The notes under the pieces are model-generated. The model was not told the origin of the DNA, did no database searches, and saw only the letters and a list, made by a program, of their open reading frames with translations. The translations under genes and the position numbers were made by a program. From Gammaproteobacteria bacterium (GTDB lineage: Bacteria; Pseudomonadota; Gammaproteobacteria; UBA4575), in contig CBDCTA010000011.1 of the NCBI GenBank assembly GCA_965221955.1, positions 1-21,386 on the forward strand: a stretch of 21,386 bases of DNA. Direction: 5' to 3'. Shown here piece after piece: positions 52 to 20,827 of the stretch. Every line of letters begins with the position of its first letter. The first letter of the stretch is position 1.

Positions 52-79
52 CTGTCTGCTTTCGGCCATTAGCGGACAT
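52..79 (+). repeat. 28-bp palindromic site S1
   Basis: CTGTCTGCTTT-CGGCCA-TTAGCGGACAT; 11-6-11 match to the family consensus. Confidence 0.9.
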
Positions 80-108
80 AAATTAATATGGAGTTTCCCA
101 AAATTTAG

Positions 109-570
109 TTACTGAATTTGAATCTCTTCAAGGTATAAAATTAGCTCAAATATGCGTCCTCGGACAAAAGTTCGACTAAATCTTTCATCAACATATAAAA
201 CACTTTCATGGTCAAAGCGATCACCCCATACAGGCATTGCTCTGGGACCATGCAATTTTAAATTGTCACTGCCTTCTATAGTTCTAAAGATCTTTCTGGT
301 TGGAAAAACACCTTTATTTTCCTGCTGTAGTAATGTCAGATTTACAGGTCTAACTGTGAGTTTTGATGCGTAAACACCATTACCTTTACCATTATCTCCA
401 TGGCACAATGCACATGAGCGCGTATATTCATCTTTACCTGCGGCAATCGCTTCTTGTAGTTCTTCACTATGCCCAAGGTTTGCAAATCCAAAGAATATGA
501 TCAGTGATAATCCTAGCGGCTTCATGATGCTTAAAGTCATACTCATCAACGAACTCCTTATTGATTTCAT
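109..570 (-). CDS. Periplasmic mono-heme c-type cytochrome
   Basis: Signal-peptide-like N-terminus, CxxCH motif (CALCH), candidate distal Met ligand in AMPVWG; true start may be a downstream Met. Confidence 0.88.
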   Translation of the reverse strand: MKSIRSSLMSMTLSIMKPLGLSLIIFFGFANLGHSEELQEAIAAGKDEYTRSCALCHGDNGKGNGVYASKLTVRPVNLTLLQQENKGVFPTRKIFRTIEGSDNLKLHGPRAMPVWGDRFDHESVLYVDERFSRTFVRGRIFELILYLEEIQIQ

Positions 571-719
571 TTACTCACACTATATATTTTCGAGTGCCAA
601 AATAAATATTTATTGAACATGATAACTATGCGACCTTCATCATCTTATGAGCTGGACAATCGGAACCCAATACCAATTAAATCTTTGTTCATATTCTTTC
701 AAAATCGTGCTTTTACTTC

Positions 720-747
720 ATGTCTACTTTCGTCCAATAGCAGACAT
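720..747 (+). repeat. 28-bp palindromic site S2
   Basis: ATGTCTACTTT-CGTCCA-ATAGCAGACAT. Confidence 0.85.
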
Positions 748-759
748 TCCTTATTAGAC

Positions 760-1014
760 TCATTTTTTCGCAGAGGGAGGATGTTTCATTTTCATATAAA
801 CGCCGCCTTTTTCTAATTCATTCAACATTTGATTAAGTCGTTTTTCCTTTGTTTCCTGCCTCTTTGCTTGGTTTATCCAACCTATATAATCATTCTGTTG
901 GTATGCTGGGCGTTGTTTATAGTCTCGTATTAAATTCCGTCCCTCCAAAGCTTTTTTCACAAAGCCAGGCATTGTATTACGTTTGCGTTTCAAATTAGAG
1001 AAACCTTTTTTCAT
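760..1014 (-). CDS. YdeI/OmpD-associated (bacteriocin-protection) family protein
   Basis: Motif YQQNDYIGWINQAKRQETKEKRLNQMLNEL is typical of this family. Confidence 0.8.
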   Translation of the reverse strand: MKKGFSNLKRKRNTMPGFVKKALEGRNLIRDYKQRPAYQQNDYIGWINQAKRQETKEKRLNQMLNELEKGGVYMKMKHPPSAKK

Positions 1015-1056
1015 ATCAAATATATTCTAACAATTATCATCATCATTAAAATACAA

Positions 1057-1084
1057 ATGTCCGCTTTGGGTCGTTAGCCGTCAT
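1057..1084 (+). repeat. 28-bp palindromic site S3
   Basis: ATGTCCGCTTT-GGGTCG-TTAGCCGTCAT. Confidence 0.95.
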
Positions 1085-1129
1085 TTTAAAATTGTAGTTT
1101 GTAGAAGCCAACCAGTTTCCACCATAATT

Positions 1130-1157
1130 TTGTCCGCTTTGGGTCATTAGCGGACAT
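1130..1157 (+). repeat. 28-bp palindromic site S4
   Basis: TTGTCCGCTTT-GGGTCA-TTAGCGGACAT; 45 bp after S3. Confidence 0.95.
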
Positions 1158-1173
1158 TTACTGAATATATATT

Positions 1174-2073
1174 TTAACTATCTGTCTTATTTAGTCCTTC
1201 AATATACATGTGCAAGTAAGTGTTGAATTGCTCAGGTGACTCTAGGTGTAAAAAATGACCGACATCTTTCATAATGACCGCATCATAATCTGCATATTTT
1301 TGATTTACTTCAACATTCGTTGGTGGAATCATGGGAGCAGGTTCTGCATTAATGGCCCGGATGGGTACACCTGCGTTTGAAAACATTTTGGGTAGGTCTA
1401 AATACGCATAATCTCTCAAAAGTGCGATCGCAACATTTGGATCTGCACTTGTCACCTTTTTTAGTATCCACTGCTGTAAGTTTGGGTCAATCAATTTACC
1501 GGATGCATCATTGAACATCGTTGTCAGTGTTCCTACAAAATCATTCTCAAATGCAGCGATCATTGCTTCTGCTTGTTCAGGAGGAAACTCATATTCCGCA
1601 TCGTGTAACGTATCTGCCGCGACTATTCCGATGACTTTATTTGGTAGCCGTCGTGCAACCTCTAAACTCACTGGACCCCCCATGGATTGTCCAACCAAAA
1701 TGATCCTGTTTAAATTTAGCTCATTGATGACTGCCACAACGTCTTGCGCTAATCCTGCAATTGTCCACGCTTCACGATTAGTTGATGACTTGCCATGACC
1801 ACCTAGGTCTAAGGTTACGACTTTATACTGATCATCAAACTCATCTATCTGTTCACGCCAAAATTCATGATTACAAGACCAACAGTGAACAAAAACAATT
1901 GCGGTATCACTCTGACCGCGAACCTCATAATAAATCGATACATCATCAGCAGATTTAACAATTCCAGTGGGCTCAATGAGATTTGATGCACATGATGTAA
2001 GCATTAAATACATCAATGTGAGATTTATTAGTTTTGTAAAATCTTTTAAACGCATAAAGTTAGGAAACATCAT
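1174..2073 (-). CDS. Alpha/beta fold hydrolase, probable lipoprotein
   Basis: FVHCWS oxyanion region, DLGGHG, nucleophile elbow GQSMGG, C-terminal GHF His; lipobox-like LTSC; start uncertain. Confidence 0.9.
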   Translation of the reverse strand: MMFPNFMRLKDFTKLINLTLMYLMLTSCASNLIEPTGIVKSADDVSIYYEVRGQSDTAIVFVHCWSCNHEFWREQIDEFDDQYKVVTLDLGGHGKSSTNREAWTIAGLAQDVVAVINELNLNRIILVGQSMGGPVSLEVARRLPNKVIGIVAADTLHDAEYEFPPEQAEAMIAAFENDFVGTLTTMFNDASGKLIDPNLQQWILKKVTSADPNVAIALLRDYAYLDLPKMFSNAGVPIRAINAEPAPMIPPTNVEVNQKYADYDAVIMKDVGHFLHLESPEQFNTYLHMYIEGLNKTDS

Positions 2074-2105
2074 TCACAATCATACAAGCATTCTCTTTTC
2101 ATAGA

Positions 2106-2600
2106 TTAAGATCGCTTAGCATAATGATAGAGGTCATAAAATTGATCGTTTTTATAAACCTCATTCTTTAGAACACCTTCTAATTCGTAGTCGCATTTTT
2201 CAAGGACACGCATCGAAATACTATTTGGAGCCAAAACAGGGGCGAATAGTTTCTTATACTTTAAATGTTCAAATACGTACTCTGTCATTTTCTGTAGAGC
2301 CTGTGTTGCAATTCCTCTACCCCAATATTCTTCTCCAATCCAATAGCCAATTTCCGCAATATGGCTTTTCCAACCTAACTGAGGAGTAATACCAATACTG
2401 CCAACGAATTCATTCTTATATTCAATGACTTTGGTTATTGCATCATTTTCATGACAACCTGTACTAATCCACCATTCTGCATCTTTACGTGTATAGGGAT
2501 AAGGAAATGTATATATCAGGTATTTAGAAACTTTTTCATTGTTCGCTAAGATAACTAATCGATCAATGTCTTTAACAGTATATTCTCTGAAAGAAAGCAT
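2106..2600 (-). CDS. GNAT N-acetyltransferase, RimJ/RimL family
   Basis: AEIGYWIGEEYWGRGIAT and NSISMRVLEKCDYELEG motifs. Confidence 0.92.
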   Translation of the reverse strand: MLSFREYTVKDIDRLVILANNEKVSKYLIYTFPYPYTRKDAEWWISTGCHENDAITKVIEYKNEFVGSIGITPQLGWKSHIAEIGYWIGEEYWGRGIATQALQKMTEYVFEHLKYKKLFAPVLAPNSISMRVLEKCDYELEGVLKNEVYKNDQFYDLYHYAKRS

Positions 2601-2616
2601 TCTTAAATGTATTTAA

Positions 2617-2644
2617 ATGTCCGCTTTGGGTCGTTAATGGCCAT
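2617..2644 (+). repeat. 28-bp palindromic site S5
   Basis: ATGTCCGCTTT-GGGTCG-TTAATGGCCAT. Confidence 0.92.
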
Positions 2645-2699
2645 TTTGATCGTGTTATTTATTAAATCCAACCTGAATTTCTCATTAGTGACTTAAGCT

Positions 2700-2727
2700 A
2701 TGTCCGCTTTCGACTATAAGCGGACAT
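2700..2727 (+). repeat. 28-bp palindromic site S6
   Basis: ATGTCCGCTTT-CGACTA-TAAGCGGACAT; 55 bp after S5. Confidence 0.95.
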
Positions 2728-2768
2728 TTTAGGCTACTAGTATTTGTAATTAGTTATCTACTTAGAAA

Positions 2769-3056
2769 CTATAAAATATGGCGACGAATTAAAATCCAAG
2801 CAAGCGGCAGTAACGCAATCAAAGCCGATATTATTAATGAAGTGCTAAACGTGCCTTCTCGCGCTTCAATAATACACTGATATACAGCTATTCCTGCAAT
2901 TACAAAGCTGAGCAACACCGATATGAGAAACAATGGTGCTGTAGACCATGCACCCCATCCATCATAATTGCGAACATACAATTCAATTCCAACAAGAACT
3001 GAAACAGGAACCAAGCAAAGAAATTCTAGTATATGCTTTCGGCCAATAGCGGTCAT
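2769..3056 (-). CDS. Hypothetical membrane protein (about 3 TM helices)
   Basis: Three hydrophobic segments; ATG and first 9 codons lie inside site S7. Confidence 0.7.
   Translation of the reverse strand: MTAIGRKHILEFLCLVPVSVLVGIELYVRNYDGWGAWSTAPLFLISVLLSFVIAGIAVYQCIIEAREGTFSTSLIISALIALLPLAWILIRRHIL
3029..3056 (+). repeat. 28-bp palindromic site S7 (left arm degenerate, overlaps two ORFs)
   Basis: GTATATGCTTT-CGGCCA-ATAGCGGTCAT. Confidence 0.85.
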
Positions 3057-3253
3057 TCGAAAAATCCATAGAATATCATTGCGATACCTATCATTATGAG
3101 CAAGAACGATGGAACAGTAATTTTATCTTCTGGGTTTGATAATGTGGGTTCGGGGAAATTAAGGCCAGATTGATACCACATGTACGCACCATAAAGTATC
3201 AAGATAAATCCACAAACAGTGATTAGAAATCTTATTAATTCGTTTCTATTCAT
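3053..3253 (-). CDS. Small hypothetical membrane protein (2 TM helices)
   Basis: Two hydrophobic segments; stop TGA is inside site S7. Confidence 0.65.
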   Translation of the reverse strand: MNRNELIRFLITVCGFILILYGAYMWYQSGLNFPEPTLSNPEDKITVPSFLLIMIGIAMIFYGFFE

Positions 3254-3273
3254 TTGAAATAATATTTACATAA

Positions 3274-3301
3274 ATGTCCGCTTTGGGTCATTAGTGGTCA
3301 T
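3274..3301 (+). repeat. 28-bp palindromic site S8
   Basis: ATGTCCGCTTT-GGGTCA-TTAGTGGTCAT. Confidence 0.95.
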
Positions 3302-3318
3302 TAGATAGTTATTAATAA

Positions 3319-3642
3319 TCATTTGTACTTACTATGTTCCCAATGCCAATAATTATCTAAACATTCATAATCAGATAATTCTACTGTTTCGCTAAGCTTT
3401 GTCTCAATAAAGCTATTCAATTTTTCAATCAAATCTTCGATGCCTTCCCATTTCTCTATAAGAAAAACATCATGTTTATCAGCTAATTTTTTTATTGAAA
3501 TTGGTGTGCACAACTGAAGATAAAAGCTATCTCCTGTGTTATTTTCGCCCACATTGATTACAGCTGAAGCAACAAAGTCCAATGGATCATCTGGCTCCCA
3601 ATCAGCTTTTTCATTAATAGATATATTTAAAATTTTGAGCAT
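3319..3642 (-). CDS. Imm8-like immunity protein (polymorphic toxin systems)
   Basis: WEPDDPLDF...GDSFYLQLCTP...YWHWE pattern and size resemble Immunity protein 8. Confidence 0.65.
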   Translation of the reverse strand: MLKILNISINEKADWEPDDPLDFVASAVINVGENNTGDSFYLQLCTPISIKKLADKHDVFLIEKWEGIEDLIEKLNSFIETKLSETVELSDYECLDNYWHWEHSKYK

Positions 3643-3659
3643 CAGGACTTAATAAATTA

Positions 3660-3687
3660 ATGTCTGCTTTGGGTCGTTAGTAGTCAT
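3660..3687 (+). repeat. 28-bp palindromic site S9
   Basis: ATGTCTGCTTT-GGGTCG-TTAGTAGTCAT. Confidence 0.92.
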
Positions 3688-3742
3688 TTTGAAGCTTTGT
3701 TTTGAAGATTCCAACCTGACTTCCCTTAAATTTATCTAAATT

Positions 3743-3770
3743 ATGTCCGCTTTTGGCCAATAATGGATAT
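3743..3770 (+). repeat. 28-bp palindromic site S10
   Basis: ATGTCCGCTTT-TGGCCA-ATAATGGATAT; 55 bp after S9. Confidence 0.88.
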
Positions 3771-3792
3771 TTTCAATTTTACATTAAGACAT

Positions 3793-3822
3793 AAAAAAGC
3801 CTCGATTCTATGACCGAGGCTT
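3793..3822 (-). terminator. Rho-independent terminator after the Met-rich protein gene
   Basis: Minus strand reads AAGCCTCGGT-CATAGA-ATCGAGGCTT followed by a T run. Confidence 0.8.
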
Positions 3823-3898
3823 CTTGTGAGGATGGATTATTACTCTACTCTAATTTTGAGAGATAAGTTTTAATCCTATTGCTTCCTGCAATTCTTTA

Positions 3899-4519
3899 TT
3901 ATTTAGTCGCCATGTTATCTGCAACGATAGGAGCTTGAAATCCTGCAAACATTTGCTGGAACCAATCAGGGTTTGTCATGGCTGCTGCACTTTCTTGTTG
4001 CCATTTTGGATCCATCACCTTGAACATTGGTTGATAGGTTTGTGGATTCATTGATACATTCATCCATTGTGTATAGTACGCAGGATTCATAAATGCATAA
4101 AATGGCTGATAGAACTGAGGGTTCATAGAAGCCGCCATCCAGTTAGTATACATCTGTGGATTCATAAACTGAGCCATCATAGCTGACCATGCTGCAGGAT
4201 TACTGTAGTACGCCATGACTTTATTCCAGGTCTCAGGCTTCATTGAACATTCCATCATGTTTGGTGCTGATTGAGGATTGCTCATAATCATCATCATTTC
4301 AGTGAACTTTGATGGGTCGGCCATTGTTTCAGCAAACACAACTGGGTCTAGATACTTTTCTAGTTTGCAATCCGTTGTAGCAATGGCTTGAGTTTCTTCT
4401 TTCGCCACTTCTTGGTCACTGCTAGCGGATGCGACAGCATAGACACTGAGAGCAATCATTACCGCACTGAGTACCGATATGTACATTGTTTTAGTAAGTT
4501 TCATTTTAGTTACCTTCAT
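3899..4519 (-). CDS. Secreted Met-rich MNP-repeat hypothetical protein
   Basis: Signal peptide ending near AVA-SA; about 10 units of 11-13 aa built on M-N/D-P. Confidence 0.8.
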   Translation of the reverse strand: MKVTKMKLTKTMYISVLSAVMIALSVYAVASASSDQEVAKEETQAIATTDCKLEKYLDPVVFAETMADPSKFTEMMMIMSNPQSAPNMMECSMKPETWNKVMAYYSNPAAWSAMMAQFMNPQMYTNWMAASMNPQFYQPFYAFMNPAYYTQWMNVSMNPQTYQPMFKVMDPKWQQESAAAMTNPDWFQQMFAGFQAPIVADNMATK

Positions 4520-4564
4520 TAAAGTTAGTGAATAAATTGATTTAAATATCTCGATTTTTCATGA

Positions 4565-4762
4565 TTAGTTGTACTGACCTGCTTCAAGTGAAGAATAAAA
4601 TTGAAGGGGTTCAGATGAAAAAGGTTCTTGCATTAGATATTGATTTGATTGCATGTGGGCAACTTTCATTTCTTCAGGCAATACGATCTGATTGGCAAAG
4701 ATTGTCAATGCCAAAGTAGTTAATCCAAGAAATACAATTGTTCGAAATGACGCAATTTTCAT
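4565..4762 (-). CDS. Small hypothetical exported or membrane-anchored protein
   Basis: 65 aa, N-terminal hydrophobic helix, AGGA SD-like sequence upstream, co-oriented with 3899..4519. Confidence 0.55.
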   Translation of the reverse strand: MKIASFRTIVFLGLTTLALTIFANQIVLPEEMKVAHMQSNQYLMQEPFSSEPLQFYSSLEAGQYN

Positions 4763-5060
4763 AATTTAGAATCCTAAAAAGTAGTTACTTACCTTGCTAA
4801 GGCATTTTGCGCCTTATACAAAGTTCAATAATTACAACAATTTTTAGACCAACCTTGTCTGATTAAGCGGCTTGGCTCAGCTTTAGTGAAAATTTACACC
4901 AGCCGAGCTCATCCTTGCTGGCACGTATAGTACATTTGATTTAAAGTGCAACAACTGCTCTATTGGTATATTAGGATATACTAATAGAGATAACGTGAGG
5001 CTTTAGTGTTCTAGCCTCTCAGTTACGTTGTCATAGGTGGCAGTAAAATTAATTTTGCTG

Positions 5061-5088
5061 ATGTCTGCTTTGGGTCGTTAACAGTCAT
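5061..5088 (+). repeat. 28-bp palindromic site S11
   Basis: ATGTCTGCTTT-GGGTCG-TTAACAGTCAT. Confidence 0.9.
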
Positions 5089-5133
5089 ATTGAACGTGTT
5101 ATTAATTGATTCCAACACATTGTGTCCCTTATT

Positions 5134-5167
5134 TTGTCCGCTTTCCTTTCGGCCAATAAGCGGTCAT
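5134..5167 (+). repeat. Site S12 with internal 5-bp duplication
   Basis: TTGTCCG-CTTTC-CTTTC-GGCCA-ATAAGCGGTCAT; 45 bp after S11. Confidence 0.85.
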
Positions 5168-5261
5168 CTACGTTAAGCCGCAACATAAATAGCCACAGCA
5201 ATTGTGGTATGAAAGCTTGACTAACCAGGTTTATTGAACAAAAAAATTTACAACACCTATA

Positions 5262-5573
5262 TTAAAATTTATCTAATCTGAATACCTGAGCATTGCTTAG
5301 ATACATAACTATTGCGTAATTTTCGAAATATTTATCCTTTAAGTAAGATGAGATTTGTTTAGCTAATTCGATATTGCATATTATTTCAATACGAATATTG
5401 CTTTCTGTTTCCCAGCCGCCCATTCGTGAGCCGCGACGACCTTTTCCACGCGCATTGACTATCGTGTAACCATTTACACCCAATGTTTCAAAATCATCTA
5501 CTAAAGAAGACTCGATAGTTGCTTCAGTTATTATTGTTAGAACTTTAATATTGTGAATATTTTCAGTAGCCAT
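5262..5573 (-). CDS. sbtB: P-II-like regulator (SbtB-type)
   Basis: LTIITEA...LGVNGYTIVNARGKGRRG...NIRIEII P-II-like pattern, directly downstream of an SbtA-family gene. Confidence 0.8.
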   Translation of the reverse strand: MATENIHNIKVLTIITEATIESSLVDDFETLGVNGYTIVNARGKGRRGSRMGGWETESNIRIEIICNIELAKQISSYLKDKYFENYAIVMYLSNAQVFRLDKF

Positions 5574-5578
5574 GAACT

Positions 5579-6520
5579 TTATCCTATAGTGACACTATAC
5601 AAAAACTTAGCCAGTGATAAATATATTGGAATTCCAAAAATAACATTAAACGAAAATGTAATCCCAAGTGAGGCAGTAAGTGATAGAGTAGGATTTGCTT
5701 CAGGAACAGAAATACGCATAGCCGCTGGTACTGCAATATATGATGCGCTTGCTGCCAAAGTCGCCAACATACCAATGCCTCCGATTGATAATCCTAAAAG
5801 TAAACCGATAAAGCTTCCTATGACTGCGGAGAATAAAGGCATAAGGATTCCAAAAATAGCCAAAAATAGACCATGATCTTTCAACGCACCTACTTGCATA
5901 GCTGCAATCAGCCCCATTTCAAGCAAAAAGATTGCAAGCACCCCTTTGAATAAATCAAAAAATAGTGGTTGTATCGATGATATTCCATCTGGCCCTGCTA
6001 TCCATCCAATTAGTAAACCACCAACTAACAGTATAATTCCTTTGCCAAGAAAAACTTCATGAAACACAAATGACCACTGTGTGTCTCTAGAAATTCCTTT
6101 TGCAAGAATAATTCCAACCAAAATTGCAGGAATTTCCAGAAGAACTAAAAGTAAAGGCATGTGCTCTTCGTAGAAAATATTTCTAGTCCCATAATAGGCT
6201 ACTGCTACCGCAAAAGTGCCGACACTTACAGACCCATAGTGAGCGGCAATAGATGCTGCATCTGCCTTTTTAAATTTTCCCAAAAAACGCAATACTGGAA
6301 ATGCAATCAATGTCAAAATTGATCCCATAAAAATTACAGCCAACATATCTGGAATAAGACTAATGAGAGATTGCTTTGCTAGCTCAACTCCACCTTTCAA
6401 CCCAATTGAGATAAGAAGTAGAAAACTAATAAATTCATAAATCTGTGTGGGCAATCGCAATGGAGAGCGAAAGATTCCAGCTAAAAATCCCAGTAAAAAA
6501 AATAAGATGATAGGATCGAT
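5579..6520 (-). CDS. sbtA: Sodium-dependent bicarbonate transporter family permease (SbtA-type)
   Basis: IGLKGG, IAAHYGSVSVGTF, AASASYIAVPAAMR motifs; frame stays open upstream of the ORF-track start (6460) through DPIILFFLLG to an ATC at 6520 with an SD. Confidence 0.9.
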   Translation of the reverse strand: MDPIILFFLLGFLAGIFRSPLRLPTQIYEFISFLLLISIGLKGGVELAKQSLISLIPDMLAVIFMGSILTLIAFPVLRFLGKFKKADAASIAAHYGSVSVGTFAVAVAYYGTRNIFYEEHMPLLLVLLEIPAILVGIILAKGISRDTQWSFVFHEVFLGKGIILLVGGLLIGWIAGPDGISSIQPLFFDLFKGVLAIFLLEMGLIAAMQVGALKDHGLFLAIFGILMPLFSAVIGSFIGLLLGLSIGGIGMLATLAASASYIAVPAAMRISVPEANPTLSLTASLGITFSFNVIFGIPIYLSLAKFLYSVTIG

Positions 6521-6564
6521 GATTATTCCTTTTATTTTTTCAATTCAACATGCTTTTAAATTTA

Positions 6565-6592
6565 ATGTCCGCCTTGGGTCGTAAGCAGTCAT
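6565..6592 (+). repeat. 28-bp palindromic site S13
   Basis: ATGTCCGCCTT-GGGTCG-TAAGCAGTCAT. Confidence 0.9.
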
Positions 6593-6804
6593 CCTATATA
6601 ACCTCTAAACTCTAATTGAGCATTTCTTTGTATTTGCTTTAATCGTTCAATTCTAATTTGTAGTTGACTGCTACGGTCATATTCTTGCTTATATAAATGG
6701 ATGTAGTCATTTAATTCTTCATTCGTTTGCAGCAATGCTTGTCGAAGCTCGCCAAGTGTCATATCTTGCATCTTTTTTCTAAGAAGCTTTCGTAAAGTGG
6801 TCAT
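6589..6804 (-). CDS. Small coiled-coil hypothetical protein
   Basis: 71 aa with heptad-like Leu spacing; stop TGA falls inside site S13. Confidence 0.55.
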   Translation of the reverse strand: MTTLRKLLRKKMQDMTLGELRQALLQTNEELNDYIHLYKQEYDRSSQLQIRIERLKQIQRNAQLEFRGYIG

Positions 6805-7277: not shown

Positions 7278-7337
7278 TTTCCTAGCCTTTTAATCAAAAT
7301 AGTATATTTAAGGATTACTTCATATATCAGAATAATA

Positions 7338-7838
7338 CTACTGAAAAACAATAACTGGGTCTGTGAATAACTTTGAATTAGGTATGAGAACTTTATTTCC
7401 TTCAGAATCTAGCTCTGTGTATCTCAGGTCTATAGAAACTACAGTCCCTTGATAGCTAGATACTTTTATAAGGTTCCCTATTTTAAACGGTCTATACAAT
7501 AATAAGAGGACACCAGATAGTAAATTAGAAATAGAATCTTTTAATGCAAAACCTAGGGCAAAGCCCGTTAGACCAAGACCTGCAACTAGAGCAGAAACAT
7601 TTATTCCCAACGTACCAAGTGCTGTAACTAGACCAAAGATTGTTAACGTTATACTACTCGTGCGGGCTAGTAGTGATGCAAGGTTTTTATCAAACTTTAA
7701 TCGATCAGCGGCGCTAGTAATTATTCTTTTTATAATTTTAGAAAGAACTACGAAAATTACTATGATGACAATAACTCCAGCTACCTTTGGCACCCATAGA
7801 GTTGCTTCATCTAACAGAAATTGGAAAAGATTTTCCAT
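7338..7838 (-). CDS. Short MscS-family mechanosensitive channel
   Basis: GFALGFALKDSISNLLSG and RPFKIG...IPNS motifs; lacks the C-terminal domain. Confidence 0.9.
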   Translation of the reverse strand: MENLFQFLLDEATLWVPKVAGVIVIIVIFVVLSKIIKRIITSAADRLKFDKNLASLLARTSSITLTIFGLVTALGTLGINVSALVAGLGLTGFALGFALKDSISNLLSGVLLLLYRPFKIGNLIKVSSYQGTVVSIDLRYTELDSEGNKVLIPNSKLFTDPVIVFQ

Positions 7839-7897
7839 AACCTACTAACCTCGTTATGTTCTAACTATAGAGAACAACAAACATTTTAGTACACATT

Positions 7898-10501: not shown

Positions 10502-11464
10502 ATGATAGAAACAATCTTATTTAATCAAAGCAAAGGAGCTACCGATCAAGGTCTAATGGAACTATTCGATCGCTGGAAAGAACAAAATGACTCATTAATT
10601 TGGGTAAGCCTAACAAACCCTTCCAGTCAAGAAGACGAGCAAATAGCAAATTTATTTGGATTTAATAAATTGGAAATGGCCGATGCCACAAGACTTCGTC
10701 ACCCTCCTAAAATAGAATTTTTCGATGATCATATTCTGATGATTCTACGAACTATCGATTCAACCGATATTGAACAAGAAATTCAGTATTCTCAATTAGC
10801 AATATTCATATCAGAACGCTACATCATTTCTCGAAAAATAAAATCTAATGAATGTATAAACAAGACATGGGATGACTTAATCAATAATGAAATTGACTGC
10901 ACACATGGTACAAGCCATATTGCATACCGCATTTCTAGAAATATTGCAGACAATTATTTTACGGTATTAGAAAAGTTGGAAGACCGACTTGAGGACCTAG
11001 AAAGTTTATTAACTACTGATCTCAATGATGATCACTTAGCAGAACTATCTAAATACAATAGCTCGTTGAGAAAAATCAATAGAGCGATGACATATCATAA
11101 GAATATATTTAGTTCTCTCTTAAACACAACGACAATCAGTTTTATTAAAAATAATATACATGAGTTTAATGACGTTTATGAACATATGGAAAGAAGCGCT
11201 AGCCTATCGCTCATGCACCAGCAGTTAAGTTCAGATCTAGTAAACAACTACTTAGCCTTAACGTCACATCGTGTAAATAAGATTGTAAAAACACTAACTA
11301 TCTTTACAGTTCTCTTTGTACCACTTTCATTTATCGCGGGGTTGTATGGAATGAATTTTGAATTTATTCCAGAGCTCAAATTTAAATATGGCTATTTTTA
11401 CATCTTGGGTATTATGTTTGCCGTTTTTACTGGATTGCTATATTTCTTGAGAAAAATGAAATGA
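10502..11464 (+). CDS. corA: CorA-family Mg/Co transporter
   Basis: HPPKIE, GLYGMNF signature, PEL, two C-terminal TM helices; start uncertain (10484-10502). Confidence 0.92.
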   Translation: MIETILFNQSKGATDQGLMELFDRWKEQNDSLIWVSLTNPSSQEDEQIANLFGFNKLEMADATRLRHPPKIEFFDDHILMILRTIDSTDIEQEIQYSQLAIFISERYIISRKIKSNECINKTWDDLINNEIDCTHGTSHIAYRISRNIADNYFTVLEKLEDRLEDLESLLTTDLNDDHLAELSKYNSSLRKINRAMTYHKNIFSSLLNTTTISFIKNNIHEFNDVYEHMERSASLSLMHQQLSSDLVNNYLALTSHRVNKIVKTLTIFTVLFVPLSFIAGLYGMNFEFIPELKFKYGYFYILGIMFAVFTGLLYFLRKMK

Positions 11465-13632
11465 ACTCAAGAATATTTACACTTTTATTGATATTTGTGT
11501 GCATTCTTTACATGCCAATTGCTGTGTATTCACAATCAGAAGAGCTCATAGCAACACCTGATATAAAAGCAGAAACAACATCACAAATACCTAGCCCATT
11601 AGATCTGAATCCAAACTGGTGGCAGTACTTCGACATACAAGACAATGACTTCTCTAAAAATGTTAGTTCTTTCTTATCACAACTAAAAACGCTTTTTAAT
11701 AAATTAGATGATAAACATAAAATTAAATTAAGCGAAAATGAAGCAAAAATACACGCTAGCTTAAAAGCGCTTGAAGACTTGAAAAATATAGAACAGATCT
11801 CACCCTCTGAAAAGTCACCTTTTAAAGATAAATATTCTTTGGATGAGCTACAGAGTGTTGAGTGGTCTCTACGAGAGACTGAGTCTATCTATAGCATTCA
11901 GGCACCACAGTTAAAAGAAGATCAAAAAGCAATCAAGGCTTTAAATCAAAAGATAGATACACTATTTGCTGCATATCGAAAGATCGATGCAGCAGATCAT
12001 GAAAAACTAGCTGCAGGACTAGAAATAATTGCGAATAGATTAGCTTGGTTAGTTTCTACAAACAAACAGCCCATTCAAAAACAGCAGATTGAAAATTATA
12101 AAACTAAAATTAGTTGGCTAAATGAAGAAAAAGAACATGCATTAAATAATCTTGTTATCACAAATAGTGAATATAACACGATCAAAAACGAAATAAAGAA
12201 GCAACTTGAAGAATTAGACGCGGCCCAAAAATATCAAGTAGAAGCAAAAAGCCTAACATTGGAGATTGTAGAAGATGATTTAATAAATACCTTCAAATCT
12301 AATGTTTTCAAACAAAAAGCATTGCTGGCTGAAATACTGACCGCATATCAAACGATACGCTTGCATCTCTTACAAGCTAAGCAGTCTATTTATCTACTTG
12401 AGAGAAATGAAACTGGTTTAGACCCTGATGAGCAAGTTGAGCAATATAAAGCCAGAGAAGTAATTTTAAAGAATACAAAAAGTGAATATGACAGTTGGCA
12501 TAAAGCACTTCAGAAAGATCGTGAAATAATAAACGAGCTCATGTTAGACAGGGATAGTGAAAATGAAAATTATAAAACAGAAGAACAAATTCTTCGAGAA
12601 CATAGAGAAGTACTCAAAAACACATCAACAGTATTAAGAAATTTAGATATATCAATAAACGATCTCACATTTTTTAATAATGCAGTTAGAGAGCAACTAG
12701 CAAAAACTCAGGGTATATTTTTCAAATTACGCTCTGATAGCTATTCTACTCTCGGTGGAGTATGGCAAAGCTTTCAAAATGTATTTTCAAAAAGTTTGTT
12801 TACGATCGGTGATGTTCCAGTAACGTTTAGCGACATTTTTAGAGCAATCATAATTATTCTGATTGCATATTTAATCTCAATAATTGTAAGAAGAATATTT
12901 AGACGAATAAGTGATGCAAATGACAGTCGTTCTACATCTATTATTTACACACTAAGTAGGCTTTCCCATTACTTGATAATAATTGTTGGCTTAATTATAG
13001 CCCTTTCATCTATTGGCTTAAGTTTTACCAATGTTGCTATTATCGCTGGCGCACTTAGTGTTGGCATAGGTTTTGGTCTTCAGTCTATTGTTAATAATTT
13101 TGTGTCTGGAATTATTCTTTTGTTTGAGCAGAATTTGAAAGTTGGAGATTATGTTGAATTAGAGTCAGGCATGAAAGGCATAGTAAAAGGAATTCATGTA
13201 CGAAGCACTACTATCACAACATTGGATAATCTAGACATTATTGTTCCAAATTCTGAACTAGTCGCAGCGAAAGTGACAAACTACACCATGAATGAGCCTA
13301 TGTTTCGTATGCATGTACCTTTTGGAGTTGCATATGGATCAGATAAAGAACTAGTCCGTAAGGCTGTGCTAGAAGCAACAAGACAAGTTGAAGTTACATA
13401 TGATGATGGTGCGAAAAGACGCCCACAAGTATGGTTAGTGGGTTTTGGAGATAGTAGCTTAAATTTTGAGTTAGTAGTTTGGGTAGTCAATAAAAAGGGT
13501 AGCAACGCTACACCAGGCTCATGGAGAGCACTATATACATGGGAAATAGAAACTGCATTAATTAAACATGAAATTGAAATTCCATTCCCACAACGAGATT
13601 TACATCTAAAAAGTGGTTTTGTAGAAAGCTAA
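11461..13632 (+). CDS. Large MscS-family (MscK-like) mechanosensitive channel
   Basis: Signal peptide, long helical periplasmic region, GALSVGIGFGLQSIVNNFVSG, FGDSSLNFEL, IEIPFPQRDLH. Confidence 0.93.
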   Translation: MNSRIFTLLLIFVCILYMPIAVYSQSEELIATPDIKAETTSQIPSPLDLNPNWWQYFDIQDNDFSKNVSSFLSQLKTLFNKLDDKHKIKLSENEAKIHASLKALEDLKNIEQISPSEKSPFKDKYSLDELQSVEWSLRETESIYSIQAPQLKEDQKAIKALNQKIDTLFAAYRKIDAADHEKLAAGLEIIANRLAWLVSTNKQPIQKQQIENYKTKISWLNEEKEHALNNLVITNSEYNTIKNEIKKQLEELDAAQKYQVEAKSLTLEIVEDDLINTFKSNVFKQKALLAEILTAYQTIRLHLLQAKQSIYLLERNETGLDPDEQVEQYKAREVILKNTKSEYDSWHKALQKDREIINELMLDRDSENENYKTEEQILREHREVLKNTSTVLRNLDISINDLTFFNNAVREQLAKTQGIFFKLRSDSYSTLGGVWQSFQNVFSKSLFTIGDVPVTFSDIFRAIIIILIAYLISIIVRRIFRRISDANDSRSTSIIYTLSRLSHYLIIIVGLIIALSSIGLSFTNVAIIAGALSVGIGFGLQSIVNNFVSGIILLFEQNLKVGDYVELESGMKGIVKGIHVRSTTITTLDNLDIIVPNSELVAAKVTNYTMNEPMFRMHVPFGVAYGSDKELVRKAVLEATRQVEVTYDDGAKRRPQVWLVGFGDSSLNFELVVWVVNKKGSNATPGSWRALYTWEIETALIKHEIEIPFPQRDLHLKSGFVES

Positions 13633-13755
13633 ATTTTAATTATTTTTACTGTGGACAATATTTTTTCTTAAATTTAGTTTTTACGTAAACCTAAATCTTG
13701 AAATTCTTAATGATACTAGAGTGTAACCCACAGTAATTTTATTCTAAAATAATAC

Positions 13756-15141
13756 TTAAGTTATCTTAATAGAATTTGTTTTTGATCTGACCTCGTTTGG
13801 GTTTTCATGATTCACCCATCTATTCATCAACTTCGCAGCAACGACATCTCCAGCTACATTAATTGATGTTCGACTCATATCTAAGATACGATCTACACCC
13901 ATAATAAGAGCAATACCTTCAGGCGGGATTCCAACCGTATCAAGAATAGTTGCAAGTATAACAATCCCTACCCCCGGTGTAGCAGGTGATCCAATAGATG
14001 CGCCAACCGCCATCGTGACAATTAAAATCATACCACTTAAAGAAATATCAACACCATACACTTGTGCTAGAAAAATTGTTGCTACAGCTTGGTAAAGAGC
14101 AGTTCCATTCATATTGATCGTTGCACCTAATGGAATGACAAATTGAGAAATTGATGTACGAACGTTCAATTTTTCTTCAGCTGTTTTAATAGATAAAGGC
14201 ATTACAGCTGCAGAACTTGAAGTTGAAAATGCAAGCAATAGAAGCTCACGTGTAGTACCCAGGAATTGAAATGGTGCTTGACGAGTAAATATAAATATTA
14301 TAACTAAGTAAAATATAAGTAATAAAAGAAGCGCAAGTAAAACCGTTGCAACATAATGCGACATACTAATAAGTGCACTGATCCCAACTTGACTCGTCAG
14401 CCGTGCCATTAATCCAAAAACGGCAATCGGTGCTAACCACATTGCCCACTTCACAATCGTCATACAAACTTGTTGTAAAGAATTTAATAGTTCTAAAAGT
14501 GGTTTAGATTGTGTGGGCGACATTGCAACAAGAGCAATCCCAAAAATCAGCGCAAAAATTACAATTTGTAGCATTTGACCTTCTACCATTGAACTTAATG
14601 GGTTGCCAGGCAAGAGTTGTATAAGCACTTGAGGTAATTCTTCAGCACTTGGAGGTGATGCTGTTTCTATAGGTTCGATGTTTTGAGCTGATGTCGTATC
14701 AATAGATTTTTCTGCTATTGCTAATGTCTTTCTTGTTAGCGATACAAGTGCAACACCAATACCAATAAAGGCTGCAATCGCTGTAGTAATAACAAAATAT
14801 ATACTGACTACTATTCCCAGTTTCTTTAGTTGATTGACACTTTCACTAGATGCGATCCCTAAAATTATGGATGCAAATACCAACGGGATTACGATCATTT
14901 GAATCGTTGCTAGAAATAACTGTCCTGGTAATGCTAACCAATTACCGATTAGAATACTTAGTTCAGGACGAATAATGCCAACTGTAGGGCCAATAATAAA
15001 ACCAACTGCTAATCCTAAAATCATACCAATTAAGACTTTCAACCATAACTGTTTTTCAACTAGCGAAAGTAATTGAGAACTTAAACGCTTAAGGGGCTTA
15101 GGTTGAATTTTTTCAAGATTTTTTAAATGCTCTAGGATCAT
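13756..15141 (-). CDS. Dicarboxylate/amino acid:cation symporter (DAACS, GltP-like)
   Basis: AFSTSSSAAVMP, PLGATINMNGTALY, DRILDMSRTSINVAGD. Confidence 0.95.
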   Translation of the reverse strand: MILEHLKNLEKIQPKPLKRLSSQLLSLVEKQLWLKVLIGMILGLAVGFIIGPTVGIIRPELSILIGNWLALPGQLFLATIQMIVIPLVFASIILGIASSESVNQLKKLGIVVSIYFVITTAIAAFIGIGVALVSLTRKTLAIAEKSIDTTSAQNIEPIETASPPSAEELPQVLIQLLPGNPLSSMVEGQMLQIVIFALIFGIALVAMSPTQSKPLLELLNSLQQVCMTIVKWAMWLAPIAVFGLMARLTSQVGISALISMSHYVATVLLALLLLLIFYLVIIFIFTRQAPFQFLGTTRELLLLAFSTSSSAAVMPLSIKTAEEKLNVRTSISQFVIPLGATINMNGTALYQAVATIFLAQVYGVDISLSGMILIVTMAVGASIGSPATPGVGIVILATILDTVGIPPEGIALIMGVDRILDMSRTSINVAGDVVAAKLMNRWVNHENPNEVRSKTNSIKIT

Positions 15142-15253
15142 GTTGCTAGCGTTGTGATTGTTATATAAAAGTCACAATACATTTTAATGACTTGAATATT
15201 AGCTTATTTATTACAGAACTTAACTCAGAATAGTTCATAAAAAGGGGATGATA

Positions 15254-15267
15254 TTGACCTAAATCAA
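15254..15267. promoter_or_regulatory. FNR/CRP-family box
   Basis: TTGAC-CTAA-ATCAA, one mismatch to TTGAT-N4-ATCAA, in a divergent intergenic region. Confidence 0.45.
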
Positions 15268-15363
15268 TGATGCAAAATAAATTCTTTCGCAGATTATAAG
15301 TTCATTTATTCGATAAGATATACACTTTGAAAATTCGCTATTCAAAAATAGCAGAGGGTAATC

Positions 15364-15564
15364 ATGCATAAGTTTAAGTCTATTTTAGTTGTAGTGATAC
15401 TTATCATGCTGATAATTTTTTTAGTTCAGAATTTTAAGGTGACGTCAATTTACTTTTTATTTTGGGGTGTAGATCTACCAAGAGCAATCTTGTTTTTTCT
15501 GCTCTTTCTAATTGGTGCCATTTTTGGTGCTATTTCAATTAGCTTTTTCAAACGAAGTAATTAA
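15364..15564 (+). CDS. LapA-family (DUF1049) small membrane protein
   Basis: IFLVQN...IYFLFW...LP...LFLIGAIFG pattern; GAGGG SD upstream. Confidence 0.8.
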   Translation: MHKFKSILVVVILIMLIIFLVQNFKVTSIYFLFWGVDLPRAILFFLLFLIGAIFGAISISFFKRSN

Positions 15565-15581
15565 AAGAATTAGCTTAGAAA

Positions 15582-15725
15582 TTAATTTCTTTCTATTGTA
15601 TAGATCAAATCAACAGCTTGGTTTTCTCCAGATTTTGCTTCAACGCTGACTCTCTTTGTAAATTGATAATTAAATCCAACTGTTCCTACAGATGTGAATA
15701 AGCCATGAGCGTAAGATACATAAAG
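15582..15725 (-). pseudogene. 3' remnant of a tamB-like (DUF490) gene
   Basis: LYVSYAHGLF...YQFTKRVSVEAKSGENQAVDLIYTIERN* resembles the TamB C-terminal beta strands; no genuine 5' part is present. Confidence 0.65.
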
Positions 15726-15728
15726 CTG

Positions 15729-15947
15729 AAGAAAAGTGAATATGTGGTGGCCATTGAATGGATACGCTCTGTGGCAACCGAGGACGCACACTTCAAACGA
15801 AATGCAGGACTCTTTACGCCACGACTCACTAAAGCCTCTTTGGACAATCAGCCCAAAACGATCGATTACATTAACGAAGTATTTGATGTGGATCTTTATG
15901 CGCTTGTCGAACCCACTAATAAAAATGAAAATAAGAATAATGCTTGA
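15729..15947 (+). pseudogene. 3' remnant of a gene, possibly a NucS/DUF91-type nuclease
   Basis: EYVVAIEWIRSV...GLF...LDNQPKTIDYINEVF recalls the C-terminus of such proteins; the ATG at 15705 sits in tamB antisense sequence. Confidence 0.4.
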
Positions 15948-16056
15948 AAGTAATATTTTTTTATACATAGATGTTTACTCCTAATAACGGTTAATTACTA
16001 AACATTCCATGTTTTAACTCTCCAATTAATTACCTCATGTTGTTCATATAAAGCAT

Positions 16057-17520
16057 CTACAATTCTTCAATACTAAATTCGTCAACTGCTGTAGCCAAAC
16101 CGCCAAATGGATCCCATTCTGCTTTAACAACTGATCCAACATTTATTGCCGCAAAAAATGCAGCAACCGTAATTGCATTATTATTTTCATCGAAATAAAG
16201 TGTTCCTGCATCTACAATAAGCGCATTACCGAGAATTGTTACTGATGTATTTGCAAGAAATGCATCCACAAGGCCTTGCAATTCCACCTCAGTGTCTGGA
16301 TCTTCACGTTCAATTCGTGTTGCAACTAATTGTGCACCAATAAATGATCCGCGCATTTCAATATAGTCACCAGTCATAATATCGGCTAAGCCAAATTGTG
16401 GAAGACCAATTGCACTTTTATCTTCAAAACGGGTGGTGGGTGTTACATTAATTGTTTCACCAAGTAATGTAATAGTTTGAGCTGCAACATTAGTTGCATC
16501 TGTAATTGCAGTTATTCTTATGAATGAATCTGGTTTAATAATGATTCTCGTTGCTTGAATAACATTAAACCCATCTAATGTCCCTTCAACTTCAACTTTT
16601 ACATTTGCTGCAACATCAGCAACATTTGCTGGCAGTCCATTTTCAAATTCAATTGTTGCACCGAATCCATTAACGGCTTGCCCATTAACTTCAAAGTCTG
16701 CAATAGAATTGAATACGGTGATAATGCCCTCTACTTCAGCCTGCTCTCCTACTACGGCATTCAGCTCAAGACCGTTTTCTAGATCAGAAGCTGTAAATGT
16801 GTTGCCCGCGAATGCTGCTACTGGACCAATCACCTCAACTACCAACCCATCGGCCAATGCATTAGATAAGTTAGCTTGATTAGCCGCAGCAAAATTGACT
16901 GTTAGCCTTGTTGCAGGACCAAATATCTCAAATGTGCTTGCCGCAACATTTAAATTATCTACTTGTCCAATTACACGATACTGTGTTGTGCCATTTCTAA
17001 TACGGATGTAACTCGCTACTATTTCACCAGCTACCGTACGAACCCCACTAATCTCAACCCGTGTTACATTTGCAACAAAGTTTGCAGCATCAAAAGGAAC
17101 ATTATTAAAGAAAGATGTTGTGTCATTAATAATAATGCGTTGATTAAGAACCGTCATTGTTCGATTAACAAAATCTACTGCTTGTACGGGTCCTCGCACA
17201 GTCTCTGCATATTCAACACTTGAAGCTGTATTATTTGAGAAATTAACTTCTGCACGTACAACTTGACCGACTTCAAGATCACCTTCCACCGCAGCAGCAT
17301 CGTTAATTGTGAACGTTGCACCACCTGTGGCAAACTCAATTCCATTTAGAATAATACTTGCGAAACCATCAACAGAACCAAAGCTGACTCCCGTTCCGCC
17401 TATGCCGCCACTGACAGAAGCAAAACTGCCTCCACCTCCGCCGCCGCTACACGCAGAGATAATTAAAAGAATAGCGGTAAAAATACCGTAAAGAGATTTT
17501 TTAAAATTAGTTATTATCAT
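16057..17520 (-). CDS. DUF5666-domain lipoprotein
   Basis: Lipobox ISAC, Gly linker, GGIGGTG, repeated G-x-V/I...VEVEG OB-like modules; likely start at ATG 17520. Confidence 0.85.
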   Translation of the reverse strand: MIITNFKKSLYGIFTAILLIISACSGGGGGGSFASVSGGIGGTGVSFGSVDGFASIILNGIEFATGGATFTINDAAAVEGDLEVGQVVRAEVNFSNNTASSVEYAETVRGPVQAVDFVNRTMTVLNQRIIINDTTSFFNNVPFDAANFVANVTRVEISGVRTVAGEIVASYIRIRNGTTQYRVIGQVDNLNVAASTFEIFGPATRLTVNFAAANQANLSNALADGLVVEVIGPVAAFAGNTFTASDLENGLELNAVVGEQAEVEGIITVFNSIADFEVNGQAVNGFGATIEFENGLPANVADVAANVKVEVEGTLDGFNVIQATRIIIKPDSFIRITAITDATNVAAQTITLLGETINVTPTTRFEDKSAIGLPQFGLADIMTGDYIEMRGSFIGAQLVATRIEREDPDTEVELQGLVDAFLANTSVTILGNALIVDAGTLYFDENNNAITVAAFFAAINVGSVVKAEWDPFGGLATAVDEFSIEEL

Positions 17521-18355
17521 TTTTATCAACATCCTCAATCTCATATTCCTCGTCAGCCTCATCCATCATATAAATACCAAGACCTATTCGCGTCTTGCCT
17601 TTTCCTTTGATGTCTGGATTTGAATCACGATCTCGTTTCTCCAACCAGCGGTCTAATCGCTCTAATAACTCCTGACTAAGCTTAGCGCTATGTTTTCTAA
17701 ATGCTTCTAGATGATCTAGCGGCACATTGTCATAACTGACTTTACGTTGAAACTTAGCTTCTTCTTTTTTATGAGTTAAATTGTAATCAATAGTTTTAAT
17801 TAGATCTGCTGTATCAGTTCCCAGTATTTGTAACTTATCTACATCACTTTCGTGTGGCACATATCCTTTTGTTACAAGTTTCAGTGTGTTATTGCGTGAT
17901 AGTTCAATTGCTTTAACTCTTAACAGTTCATCAGCTACTGCACGTGCCGGCATATCTCCACTATATTCATTCACTAACTCACTGAAACTTTTATCACCTT
18001 CAAATGGTAAAACTGCAGGTGAACCCGACTTCGTTCTATAACGCGTATCACGTAACCAAGCTGTTAATACTCGGACTGCGCGGTTATAACGTTCATCAAC
18101 TTCAGTATGTTCAACAGGTGGTAGTTTTTGTATACGCGCAACCTCTTTACGGTTTAAACCCGTAATTACAGAAATTCTGGAGGCAGTTTGTTTTTTGCCT
18201 TCAACTTGGAATTCTTTTTCTGCTACTTCCACGTAAACCCTTCTTACTATTTCCTCAAATGCACCAGCTGACACTCCATACCGCAAGAGTATGCGTACAA
18301 GTGGCCTGAGTATGCGAACAATCGCATGTATAACAACCTTCGAGTGTTTTTCCAT
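17507..18355 (-). CDS. DUF6502-family protein, putative DNA-binding regulator
   Basis: LRPLVRILLRYGV, SRISVITGLNRKEV (HTH-like), SFSELV...GDMPARAVADEL, FQRKVSY; lies between DUF5666 genes. Confidence 0.8.
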   Translation of the reverse strand: MEKHSKVVIHAIVRILRPLVRILLRYGVSAGAFEEIVRRVYVEVAEKEFQVEGKKQTASRISVITGLNRKEVARIQKLPPVEHTEVDERYNRAVRVLTAWLRDTRYRTKSGSPAVLPFEGDKSFSELVNEYSGDMPARAVADELLRVKAIELSRNNTLKLVTKGYVPHESDVDKLQILGTDTADLIKTIDYNLTHKKEEAKFQRKVSYDNVPLDHLEAFRKHSAKLSQELLERLDRWLEKRDRDSNPDIKGKGKTRIGLGIYMMDEADEEYEIEDVDKNDNN

Positions 18356-18382
18356 TCATCTCTAAAGTCTCAGTTATAAAAT

Positions 18383-18417
18383 AAAAAGCAGTCTCATCCA
18401 TGAGAGCTATGCTTTTT
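18383..18417 (-). terminator. Intra-operon hairpin or terminator
   Basis: Minus strand AAAAAGCA-TAGC-TCTCAT-GG-ATGAGA-C-TGCTTTTT followed by ATTTT. Confidence 0.55.
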
Positions 18418-18443
18418 ACTTTCAAGGAGTACCTGAAACTTAT

Positions 18444-19904: not shown

Positions 19905-19963
19905 TATTGACTCCTTATCAACTATTTAAGCGATAGAAGCCCAGTTATGGGCATATATTATAT

Positions 19964-20039
19964 TGGGAATTTTTTCCCATTAACAGCCAGTATACACATA
20001 TTTTATATATTTGGGAATATATTCCCAAATATATAAAAT
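19964..20039. promoter_or_regulatory. Tandem operator-like boxes TGGGAA-N4-TTCCCA
   Basis: Boxes at 19964-19979 and 20012-20027; the second is the centre of a perfect 40-bp palindrome at 20000-20039. Confidence 0.7.
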
Positions 20040-20823: not shown

Positions 20824-20827
20824 ACTA

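Follow-up and report, generated by a model that had tools for sequence, protein, structure and literature searches.

Integrons are the textbook route by which single genes are filed into exchangeable arrays, and dif modules, which are plasmid-bound and confined to one genus, provide a second example. The question raised here is whether a tract at the left end of contig CBDCTA010000011.1, from a Gammaproteobacteria bacterium of lineage UBA4575, belongs to either of them. The contig was analyzed over its full 21,386 nucleotides and is called the window below; it is one entire contig of assembly GCA_965221955.1 (G000; 2.69 Mb, 29 contigs, 96.6% complete, 4.3% contamination), whose contigs are given C-numbers, with other G-numbers (G001-G045) used for related genomes, including the congeners G010, G011, and G013. 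An original prediction, made from the letters alone, had claimed 13 co-oriented copies of a 28-bp site, consisting of two 11-bp arms around a 6-bp core, that divide positions 52 to 6592 into modules of one or two unrelated minus-strand genes, and had ascribed them to a gene-capture system driven by a tyrosine recombinase encoded elsewhere. We propose that the window contains one array of a genome-wide, chromosomal gene-cassette system, in which a single accessory gene, sometimes two, lies between each pair of sites. The system would be site-specific and served by a recombinase acting in trans, a proposal whose chances we judge to be about even.

The window was scanned with the predicted degenerate 28-mer, allowing up to 3 mismatches and using 100 shuffles as background. 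Eleven matches were found against 0 expected, covering 10 of the 13 starts (52, 1057, 1130, 2617, 2700, 3274, 3660, 3743, 5061, and 6565), with site 2700 matching on the minus strand too. Starts 720 and 3029 were gained by a looser scan with up to 4 substitutions, and the copy at 5134, which carries 6 additional bases (5134-5167), was seen only within a match at 5056-5172 to a site profile that had been built from 31 composite units and scanned over G000. This profile recovered all 13 sites, each on the plus strand; all are real. Two more copies outside the predicted span, 20833-20861 (minus strand) and 21324-21365, probably explain why 15 copies had also been mentioned. The predicted gene-end distances (747/760, 1157/1174, 2600/2617, 3253/3274, 3301/3319, and 3642/3660) are correct, the main open reading frames (ORFs) between sites lie on the minus strand throughout, and the ORF list, Pfam, and clustering bear out modules of one or two unrelated genes. 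The array extends to the contig start, so its left end is outside view.

The sites are dyad symmetric and fall into two spacer classes, A (…TTTGGGTCGTT…) and B (…TTTCGGCCAAT…), which differ at 4 central positions. The consensus is ATGTCCGCTTT-GGGTCG-TTAGC(A/G)G(T/A)CAT for class A and ATGTC(C/T)GCTTT-CGGCCA-(A/T)TAGCGG(A/T)CAT for class B; both have the same polarity and share one orientation within arrays. An A site is commonly followed by a B site after 45 to 55 bp, giving a composite of 101 to 111 bp, of which the window holds four, and the linker of the composite is itself conserved, with TCCAACC apparently invariant among 31 aligned composites. In total, G000 has 187 sites at 47 loci, chromosomal, intergenic, and often paired, which after overlap resolution comprise 39 composites, 52 lone A, 50 lone B, and 7 unclassed sites. 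The loci hold 25, 24, 13, 12, 11, and fewer sites, the window array, with 13, being the third largest.

These sites follow a regular grammar. Read along the site strand, arrays usually run B, a gene on the opposite strand, A, the 45- to 55-bp linker, and the next B; this form was found in 62 of 94 same-orientation neighbor pairs within 6 kb in G000, and lone cassettes amid ordinary genes read B-gene-A. When G000 was pooled with 106 loci from other genomes, the longest ORF ran opposite to the site orientation in 134 of 155 modules (20 had it on the same strand, and 1 had no ORF). Module length has a median of ~550 bp over all 268 neighbor intervals, one ORF occupies a median 85% of a module, and, over 86 modules, B is separated from the stop codon by a median of 17.5 nt and A from the start codon by a median of 37 nt.

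Evidence that these modules are exchanged comes from pairs of nearly identical contigs. C14 and C23, whose flanks are 99.0 to 99.5% identical over 4.3 and 10.8 kb, enclose ~4.1 kb and ~12.4 kb of array, respectively, with one 1.5-kb module in common. C14 carries an additional 1.0-kb module between two B sites where C23 has one B (B-X-B versus B), and here homology to either flank ends inside or at the edge of a site; at the next junction the site is in inverted form, and at the far end homology restarts 4 nt before the terminal A. The second pair, C10 and C29 (flanks 98.7 to 99.7% identical), has 1.4 kb and 4.0 kb of unrelated cassettes between the terminal B and the terminal A, with the right breakpoint at the inner edge of the latter. 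By these alignments, both contig pairs behave as strain variants. Elsewhere in G000, window positions 2700-3057 recur at 97% identity in C5:25760-26117 between unrelated flanks, the homology extending from the first base of one site to 1 or 2 bases past the next. In the congener G011, window position 3058 is joined to 6584 via a single site, leaving out four window cassettes, and site 3029-3056 is the junction of this difference; genus core synteny starts only at ~7330-7890 of the window. Altogether, modules bounded by sites are gained, lost, replaced, and inverted, with breakpoints mostly in or at the edge of sites, both between near-identical contigs and between congeners, as the prediction had anticipated. 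It had further reasoned that an ordinary repeat would be scattered genome-wide with no gene gain or loss at its boundaries; the scatter was indeed found, at 47 loci, and so were gain and loss at the sites.

How the sites might be recognized was examined by alignment and folding. Most site positions are more than 90% conserved, in an alignment whose A sites are biased toward an exact 22-mer by which loci were retrieved, and no covariation between A and B or within arms exceeded that of shuffled partners. Single-stranded folding of composites and single sites was weak (z of -0.3 to -2.85), three of five composite folds being within ~1 standard deviation of their shuffles. Since the sites are conserved in sequence, show no covariation, and fold weakly, they point to a sequence-specific protein acting on duplex DNA rather than to a folded hairpin of the attC or repetitive extragenic palindrome (REP) kind, and the hairpin or attC-like folding hypothesis was not supported by the same two results. 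Rfam gave no match for A or B sites, nor for a second repeat, E, described below.

Candidate enzymes were then considered by family. The prediction was right that the recombinase is not encoded in the window, where Pfam and ORF scans found no recombinase gene, whereas its tyrosine-recombinase-driven system was not supported. The tyrosine recombinase beside the C23/C14 array is the housekeeping xerD, followed by dsbC, with an XerD equivalog score of 402 bits versus a cutoff of 330, and xerD of two relatives has no site within ~10 kb; a dedicated array-adjacent tyrosine recombinase was rejected, xerD being the only such neighbor. With TIGR02249 (cutoff, 265 bits), no integron integrase was found in G000, the best single stretch scoring 83 and whole XerD 130, or above cutoff in five more genomes with sites, of which two are chromosome-level records, and in two cultured hosts IntI is present only as remnants, none overlapping the 8-kb site loci that were retrieved; given the sub-cutoff scores and the position of the remnants, IntI was rejected. 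Transposases of the Y1 family, including the REP-associated tyrosine transposases (RAYTs; PF01797), are lacking in G000, G010, G014, and G019, and in G045 both Y1 genes have another palindrome, and no A or B site, at their flanks, on which grounds this family was rejected also. One large serine recombinase each was found in G000, where a terminase-like gene and a 162-aa ORF are next to it, and in G010 and G019; it was rejected because site-positive G001, G002, G014, G015, G021, and G022 have none. The IS110, Rpn, rve, and DDE_Tnp_1 transposases were rejected for their absence from G000 and most or all site-positive congeners.

XerC and XerD are the only site-specific recombinases present in every site-bearing genome checked for tyrosine recombinases. 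Both occur in four distinct relatives, and in G010, a complete congener, no recombinase was found other than XerC and XerD, a phage-type integrase, and a large serine recombinase; in G000, a second Xer-like gene is on C22, and C29 encodes a 431-aa integrase that resembles those of islands. A canonical dif was located at C4:59807 in G000, with one each in four distinct relatives. The 11-6-11 layout that had been likened to dif/XerCD sites holds as geometry, but the arms of the G000 dif are unrelated to those of A or B, and by this comparison and by reading of the sites they are, as had been stated, neither dif nor attC in sequence. Because the sites are unlike the genome's own dif, we regard an unrecognized enzyme as at least as likely as XerCD.

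The conserved linker may act as a promoter. On the gene strand, the consensus upstream of A is GGTTGGAAT…TTAAA|AT, i.e., TTGGAA-N17-TAAAAT, with the -10 element overlapping the A site; in the composite at 1057-1157 of the window, it reads TTGGCT-N17-TAAAAT. When at least 4 of 6 matches were demanded in each hexamer, 38 of 80 composites passed, but among lone A sites only 27 of 199 did. These motifs suggest that each linker may drive the downstream cassette, and a cassette may own a promoter with a palindromic site at its transcription start. A mechanism can be proposed in which a sequence-specific protein, acting in trans on double-stranded DNA, would recombine sites of like spacer class, so that a B × B or A × A exchange would excise or insert a circle with one gene and one linker, and the sigma-70-like promoter of the linker would give every cassette its own expression slot.

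The cargo is diverse. Products of the window cassettes are a c-type cytochrome, a YdeI/OmdA fragment, an alpha/beta hydrolase with a GNAT acetyltransferase, small membrane proteins, a weakly Imm8-like protein, a 206-aa protein of no family, and a P-II/SbtA-like pair. Among 27 cassettes of two other arrays, each Pfam family was found in one cassette only (peptidases M23 and M48, globin, OsmC, GNAT, Rieske, Macro, TPR, and Na/H exchanger), and the Pfam matches of these and of the window cassettes include no mobility gene. Clustering of 284 module ORFs of at least 50 aa gave hardly any families, the largest cluster having 5 members, nearly all from one locus, and no gene recurred inside modules.

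To define the spread of the sites, a degenerate 23-mer was compared with 41 related genomes, and 20 were positive, versus 0 for the reversed pattern; together with the 187 sites of G000, this supplies the scan of the genome and its relatives that had been suggested. Of the positives, one belongs to another family and 18 to the same family, from which 24 genomes were compared and 6 of 11 sampled genera carry the site; the congener G013 has no A or B site. The exact site 22-mer occurs, among the matches listed, in more than 106 stretches of a species-representative collection. Their record titles name Gammaproteobacteria, Thiotrichales, Woeseiaceae, Lysobacter, Oleiagrimonas, Billgrantia, Hahella, and others, as well as Nitrospina, Alphaproteobacteria, Caulobacteraceae, and Xanthobacteraceae, and the carriers include cultured strains, e.g., isolates of Lysobacter, Billgrantia, and Oleiagrimonas. 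Some of these records are bins and possibly mis-binned; however, sites are also present on long contigs of 60 to 67% G+C, and the backgrounds span 38 to 67% G+C. Plasmid and phage collections gave no site match, and viral contigs (IMG/VR) gave one half-site only, which is uninformative.

In one complete relative, with dnaA at 585 kb and dif at 1,912 kb, cassette genes are co-directional with replication at 68 of 87 sites (45 of 55 and 23 of 32 for the two replichores), or at 19 of 22 when counted by locus. Selection on gene direction may underlie this bias, or else a mechanism coupled to replication.

A broader proposal is that these arrays represent a phylum-spanning, IntI-independent form of gene capture, in which promoter-equipped chromosomal slots exchange single-gene cassettes via a 28-bp double-stranded site, through a recombinase of an unrecognized family or XerCD on a non-dif site, and which provides the main accessory-gene flux in genomes nearly free of insertion sequences (ISs). 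We advance it tentatively, as an idea that may hold but on which we would not yet rely. If confirmed, it would be a third single-gene filing system besides integrons and dif modules, chromosomal, multi-locus, and with no linked enzyme, whose site is identical to the letter from Gammaproteobacteria to Nitrospina and which points to a missing sequence-specific recombinase. It would also account for strain-level variation in gene content in abundant sediment and marine lineages with almost no ISs and give metagenome searches for accessory genes a simple sequence tag. No paper with the site sequence or such arrays was found in the literature searched, which did not extend to supplements, so that a prior description is possible.

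The arrays work most like an integron array or dif modules, yet each comparison ends in differences that keep them out of both. They could be divergent integron arrays without an integrase, i.e., clusters of attC sites lacking integrases (CALINs), with A-linker-B as attC and IntI elsewhere or lost. This view accommodates the co-oriented, mostly single, unrelated ORFs of largely unknown function, each with its site close to the stop codon, the ~100-bp repeated unit of two simple sites between them, their fast turnover among close strains, and an orientation tied to replication. We nevertheless consider it very improbable, as neither G000 nor the five further genomes has an IntI above cutoff and the remnants in cultured hosts lie outside the site loci retrieved there. 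The attC inverse-core and core 7-mers stand in the required arrangement at neither end of the 31 composites, and attC is read as a folded strand, whereas here it is the sequence that is conserved. An integron has one platform and one cassette promoter (Pc); here there are dozens of loci per genome (47 in G000), with a promoter-like element before each cassette, and a lone cassette is bracketed by two half-units, B and A, instead of being a gene with a whole composite.

The resemblance to Acinetobacter dif modules, which are bounded by pdif sites and involve XerCD (PMC13141974 and PMC6449649), is of another kind. Both have 28-bp 11-6-11 sites, modules of one or a few accessory genes, and inversions and deletions at sites (PMC13141974), and XerC and XerD are present in the host. 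pdif sites with identical spacers recombine, according to the same paper, and exchange here likewise appears to join sites of like spacer. The difference between B-X-B in C14 and B in C23 is one clear event that parallels this rule, although the informative bases there do not locate the crossover within the 6-bp core. The A and B arms share no sequence with the G000 dif or with the pdif sites in Table 1 of PMC13141974; moreover, the sites here have one polarity, in contrast to the alternating C/D and D/C order described in that paper, and are chromosomal, multi-locus, not found on plasmids, and spread over several phyla rather than the one genus it covers.

Several observations weigh against a site-specific cassette system. 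No recognized enzyme family tracks the sites among those searched in G000 and its relatives, and no recombinase is linked to any array (the lone G022 array sits between scpB and rluB) or recurrent among the flanking ORFs of 106 loci. Because none is linked and no gene of any kind recurs in these flanks, the recombinase would act in trans. At the B-X-B junction, a crossover within the 6-bp core would agree with the informative bases only if extra mutations are assumed, and the left breakpoint of C10/C29 lies ~10 to 20 nt outside the terminal B. No circular intermediate has been observed, the one public read run found containing 5% of the sampled words. Congeners also carry, without flanking sites, homologues of three window cassettes (the P-II/SbtA pair, 89% in G014; the Imm8-like gene, 82% in G011; and the 206-aa gene, 81%), and short-homology recombination would equally give breakpoints within near-identical 28-bp repeats.

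The main rival is a REP-like repeat recombined by host functions. In this view, selfish or structural palindromes, akin to REPs, bacterial interspersed mosaic elements (BIMEs), or REP doublets forming hairpins (REPINs), would accumulate around accessory genes, and the host's own recombination between repeats, homologous or by short homology and perhaps following the uptake of foreign DNA, would produce the array differences with no dedicated recombinase. Short, imperfect intergenic palindromes in high copy at 47 loci, often paired and clustered in variable regions, fit this picture, as do the ~105-bp composites, which resemble a BIME or REPIN doublet with a conserved linker, the presence of E, a clearly REP-like structured repeat, beside many arrays, the breakpoint outside a site, and the failure to find an enzyme. 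We think it unlikely all the same, though by no means negligible. No Y1/RAYT gene is present in G000 or in G010, G014, and G019, which are each 99 to 100% complete, and those of G045 accompany another palindrome; the hairpins are weak with no compensatory change, and the doublets are direct, sharing polarity, rather than inverted. Unlike lineage-specific REPs, the exact 22-mer is found across classes and phyla in such varied base composition, and each unit brackets one gene in a fixed orientation (134/155).

The sites might instead be mainly expression signals, with A as an operator over the -10 element of a portable promoter, B as an end-of-gene element, a conserved regulator binding both, and mobility as a by-product of sequence identity. 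The TTGGAA-N17-TAAAAT motif at a fixed distance from A, the dyad symmetry with conservation of sequence rather than structure, and the fixed positions relative to start and stop codons are consistent with this explanation, which we hold to be improbable: fewer than half of the composites and a still smaller share of the lone A sites pass the promoter test, a generic promoter scan of the window flags one linker only (the 1083-1111 region), B sites have no promoter, and neither B-X-B versus B nor whole-array replacement is explained by signals themselves. We know of no regulator with this operator. Mobile insertion cassettes and elements like miniature inverted-repeat transposable elements (MITEs) also carry passenger genes without a transposase between similar short ends, but the flanking sites here are direct copies, each palindromic itself, and no partner IS with these ends was found, the rve, DDE_Tnp_1, and IS110 families being those already noted as lacking. 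Likewise, IS200/IS605-type or transposon cassettes would require a transposase (Y1, IS110, Rpn, rve, or DDE_Tnp_1) that was not found in G000 or in most or all site-positive congeners.

The features of the window are collected in Table 1.

Table 1. Sites and cassettes of the array and the two outlying sites in the 21,386-nt window
Feature	Position	Strand	Evidence
B-class site, first in view	52-79	+	28-mer scans, profile
Cassette ORF, 153 aa, c-type cytochrome domain	109-570	-	ORF list, Pfam
Degenerate B-class site	720-747	+	Looser scan, profile
Cassette ORF, 84 aa, YdeI/OmdA domain (fragment)	760-1014	-	ORF list, Pfam
Composite: A 1057-1084, 45-bp linker, second site 1130-1157	1057-1157	+	Scans, profile
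Two-gene module: alpha/beta hydrolase 1174-2073, GNAT acetyltransferase 2106-2600	1174-2600	-	ORF list, Pfam
Composite: A 2617-2644, linker, B 2700-2727	2617-2727	+	Scans, profile
Cassette ORF, 95 aa, no family	2769-3056	-	ORF list, Pfam
B-class site over start codon of 95-aa ORF	3029-3056	+	Looser scan, profile
Cassette ORF, 66 aa, small membrane protein	3053-3253	-	ORF list, Pfam scan
A-class site	3274-3301	+	28-mer scan, profile
Cassette ORF, 107 aa, weak Imm8 immunity-protein match below Pfam cutoff	3319-3642	-	Pfam
Composite: A 3660-3687, linker, B 3743-3770	3660-3770	+	Scans, profile
Module: 206-aa ORF 3899-4519 (no family), 65-aa ORF 4565-4762	3771-5060	-	ORF list, Pfam
Composite: A 5061-5088, linker, B with 6 additional bases 5134-5167	5061-5167	+	Scans, profile
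Two-gene module: P-II protein 5262-5573, SbtA-like bicarbonate transporter 5579-6460	5262-6460	-	Pfam
Terminal A-class site, array right end	6565-6592	+	28-mer scan, profile
A-class site beyond predicted span	20833-20861	-	Looser scan, profile
Site scoring on both strands	21324-21365		Looser scan, profile

Some features deserve comment. The cytochrome ORF has homologues 72 to 76% identical elsewhere in G000 and in 6 congeners, a terminator-like hairpin (3825-3794) lies inside the module that follows the third composite, and the terminal A site overlaps the stop of a 71-aa ORF at 6589-6804. The 95-aa ORF takes its start codon and opening residues (MTAIGRK) from the B site at 3029-3056, and the G011 orthologue of this ORF begins in matching but less site-like sequence. 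Beyond the array, a 166-aa ORF at 7338-7838 corresponds to an MscS channel reduced to its N-terminal and beta-domain parts, the full 723-aa MscS-family gene being at 11461-13632; the short ORF may be a fragment at the boundary between array and core.

Repeat E, of ~75 to 100 bp, has 61 copies in G000 (e.g., C17:16411-16507, C22:24032-24121, and C29:312278-312375) and none in the window. It often forms an inverted pair just outside arrays, in the order E, B ... A, linker, inverted E, and adjoins 26 of 102 terminal half-sites. E has two hairpins with compensatory changes (e.g., A-T in 22 and T-A in 22 at one pair) and GGA in each loop, which we take to be reminiscent of CsrA-binding hairpins. 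It is mostly genus restricted, present in site-less G013 and not found in site-rich G019, G021, and G022; E is therefore a separate element, and its role as an obligatory array end was rejected. A copy also lies just upstream of the P-II/SbtA pair of G014, at about positions 1374-1436 of locus L129 (G014:C2:44500-49000).

The site-rich genomes are nearly free of recognized ISs, and site-less G013 alone among 15 genus genomes has IS110, rve, and DDE_Tnp_1, which is a single contrast. Outside the array, window positions 11275-15913 and 20294-21386 are 97% identical to C26:91280-95919 and 75247-76340, and the 4.4 kb between them (15914-20293, with a DUF5666 protein and two other ORFs) is swapped in C26 for 14.9 kb that holds the large serine recombinase, the 162-aa ORF, the terminase-like gene, and two more sites. 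Self-comparison of G000 further revealed perfect or near-perfect tandem repeats at C22:1-1926 (period, 339 bp) and C29:662144-663592 (period, 294 bp).

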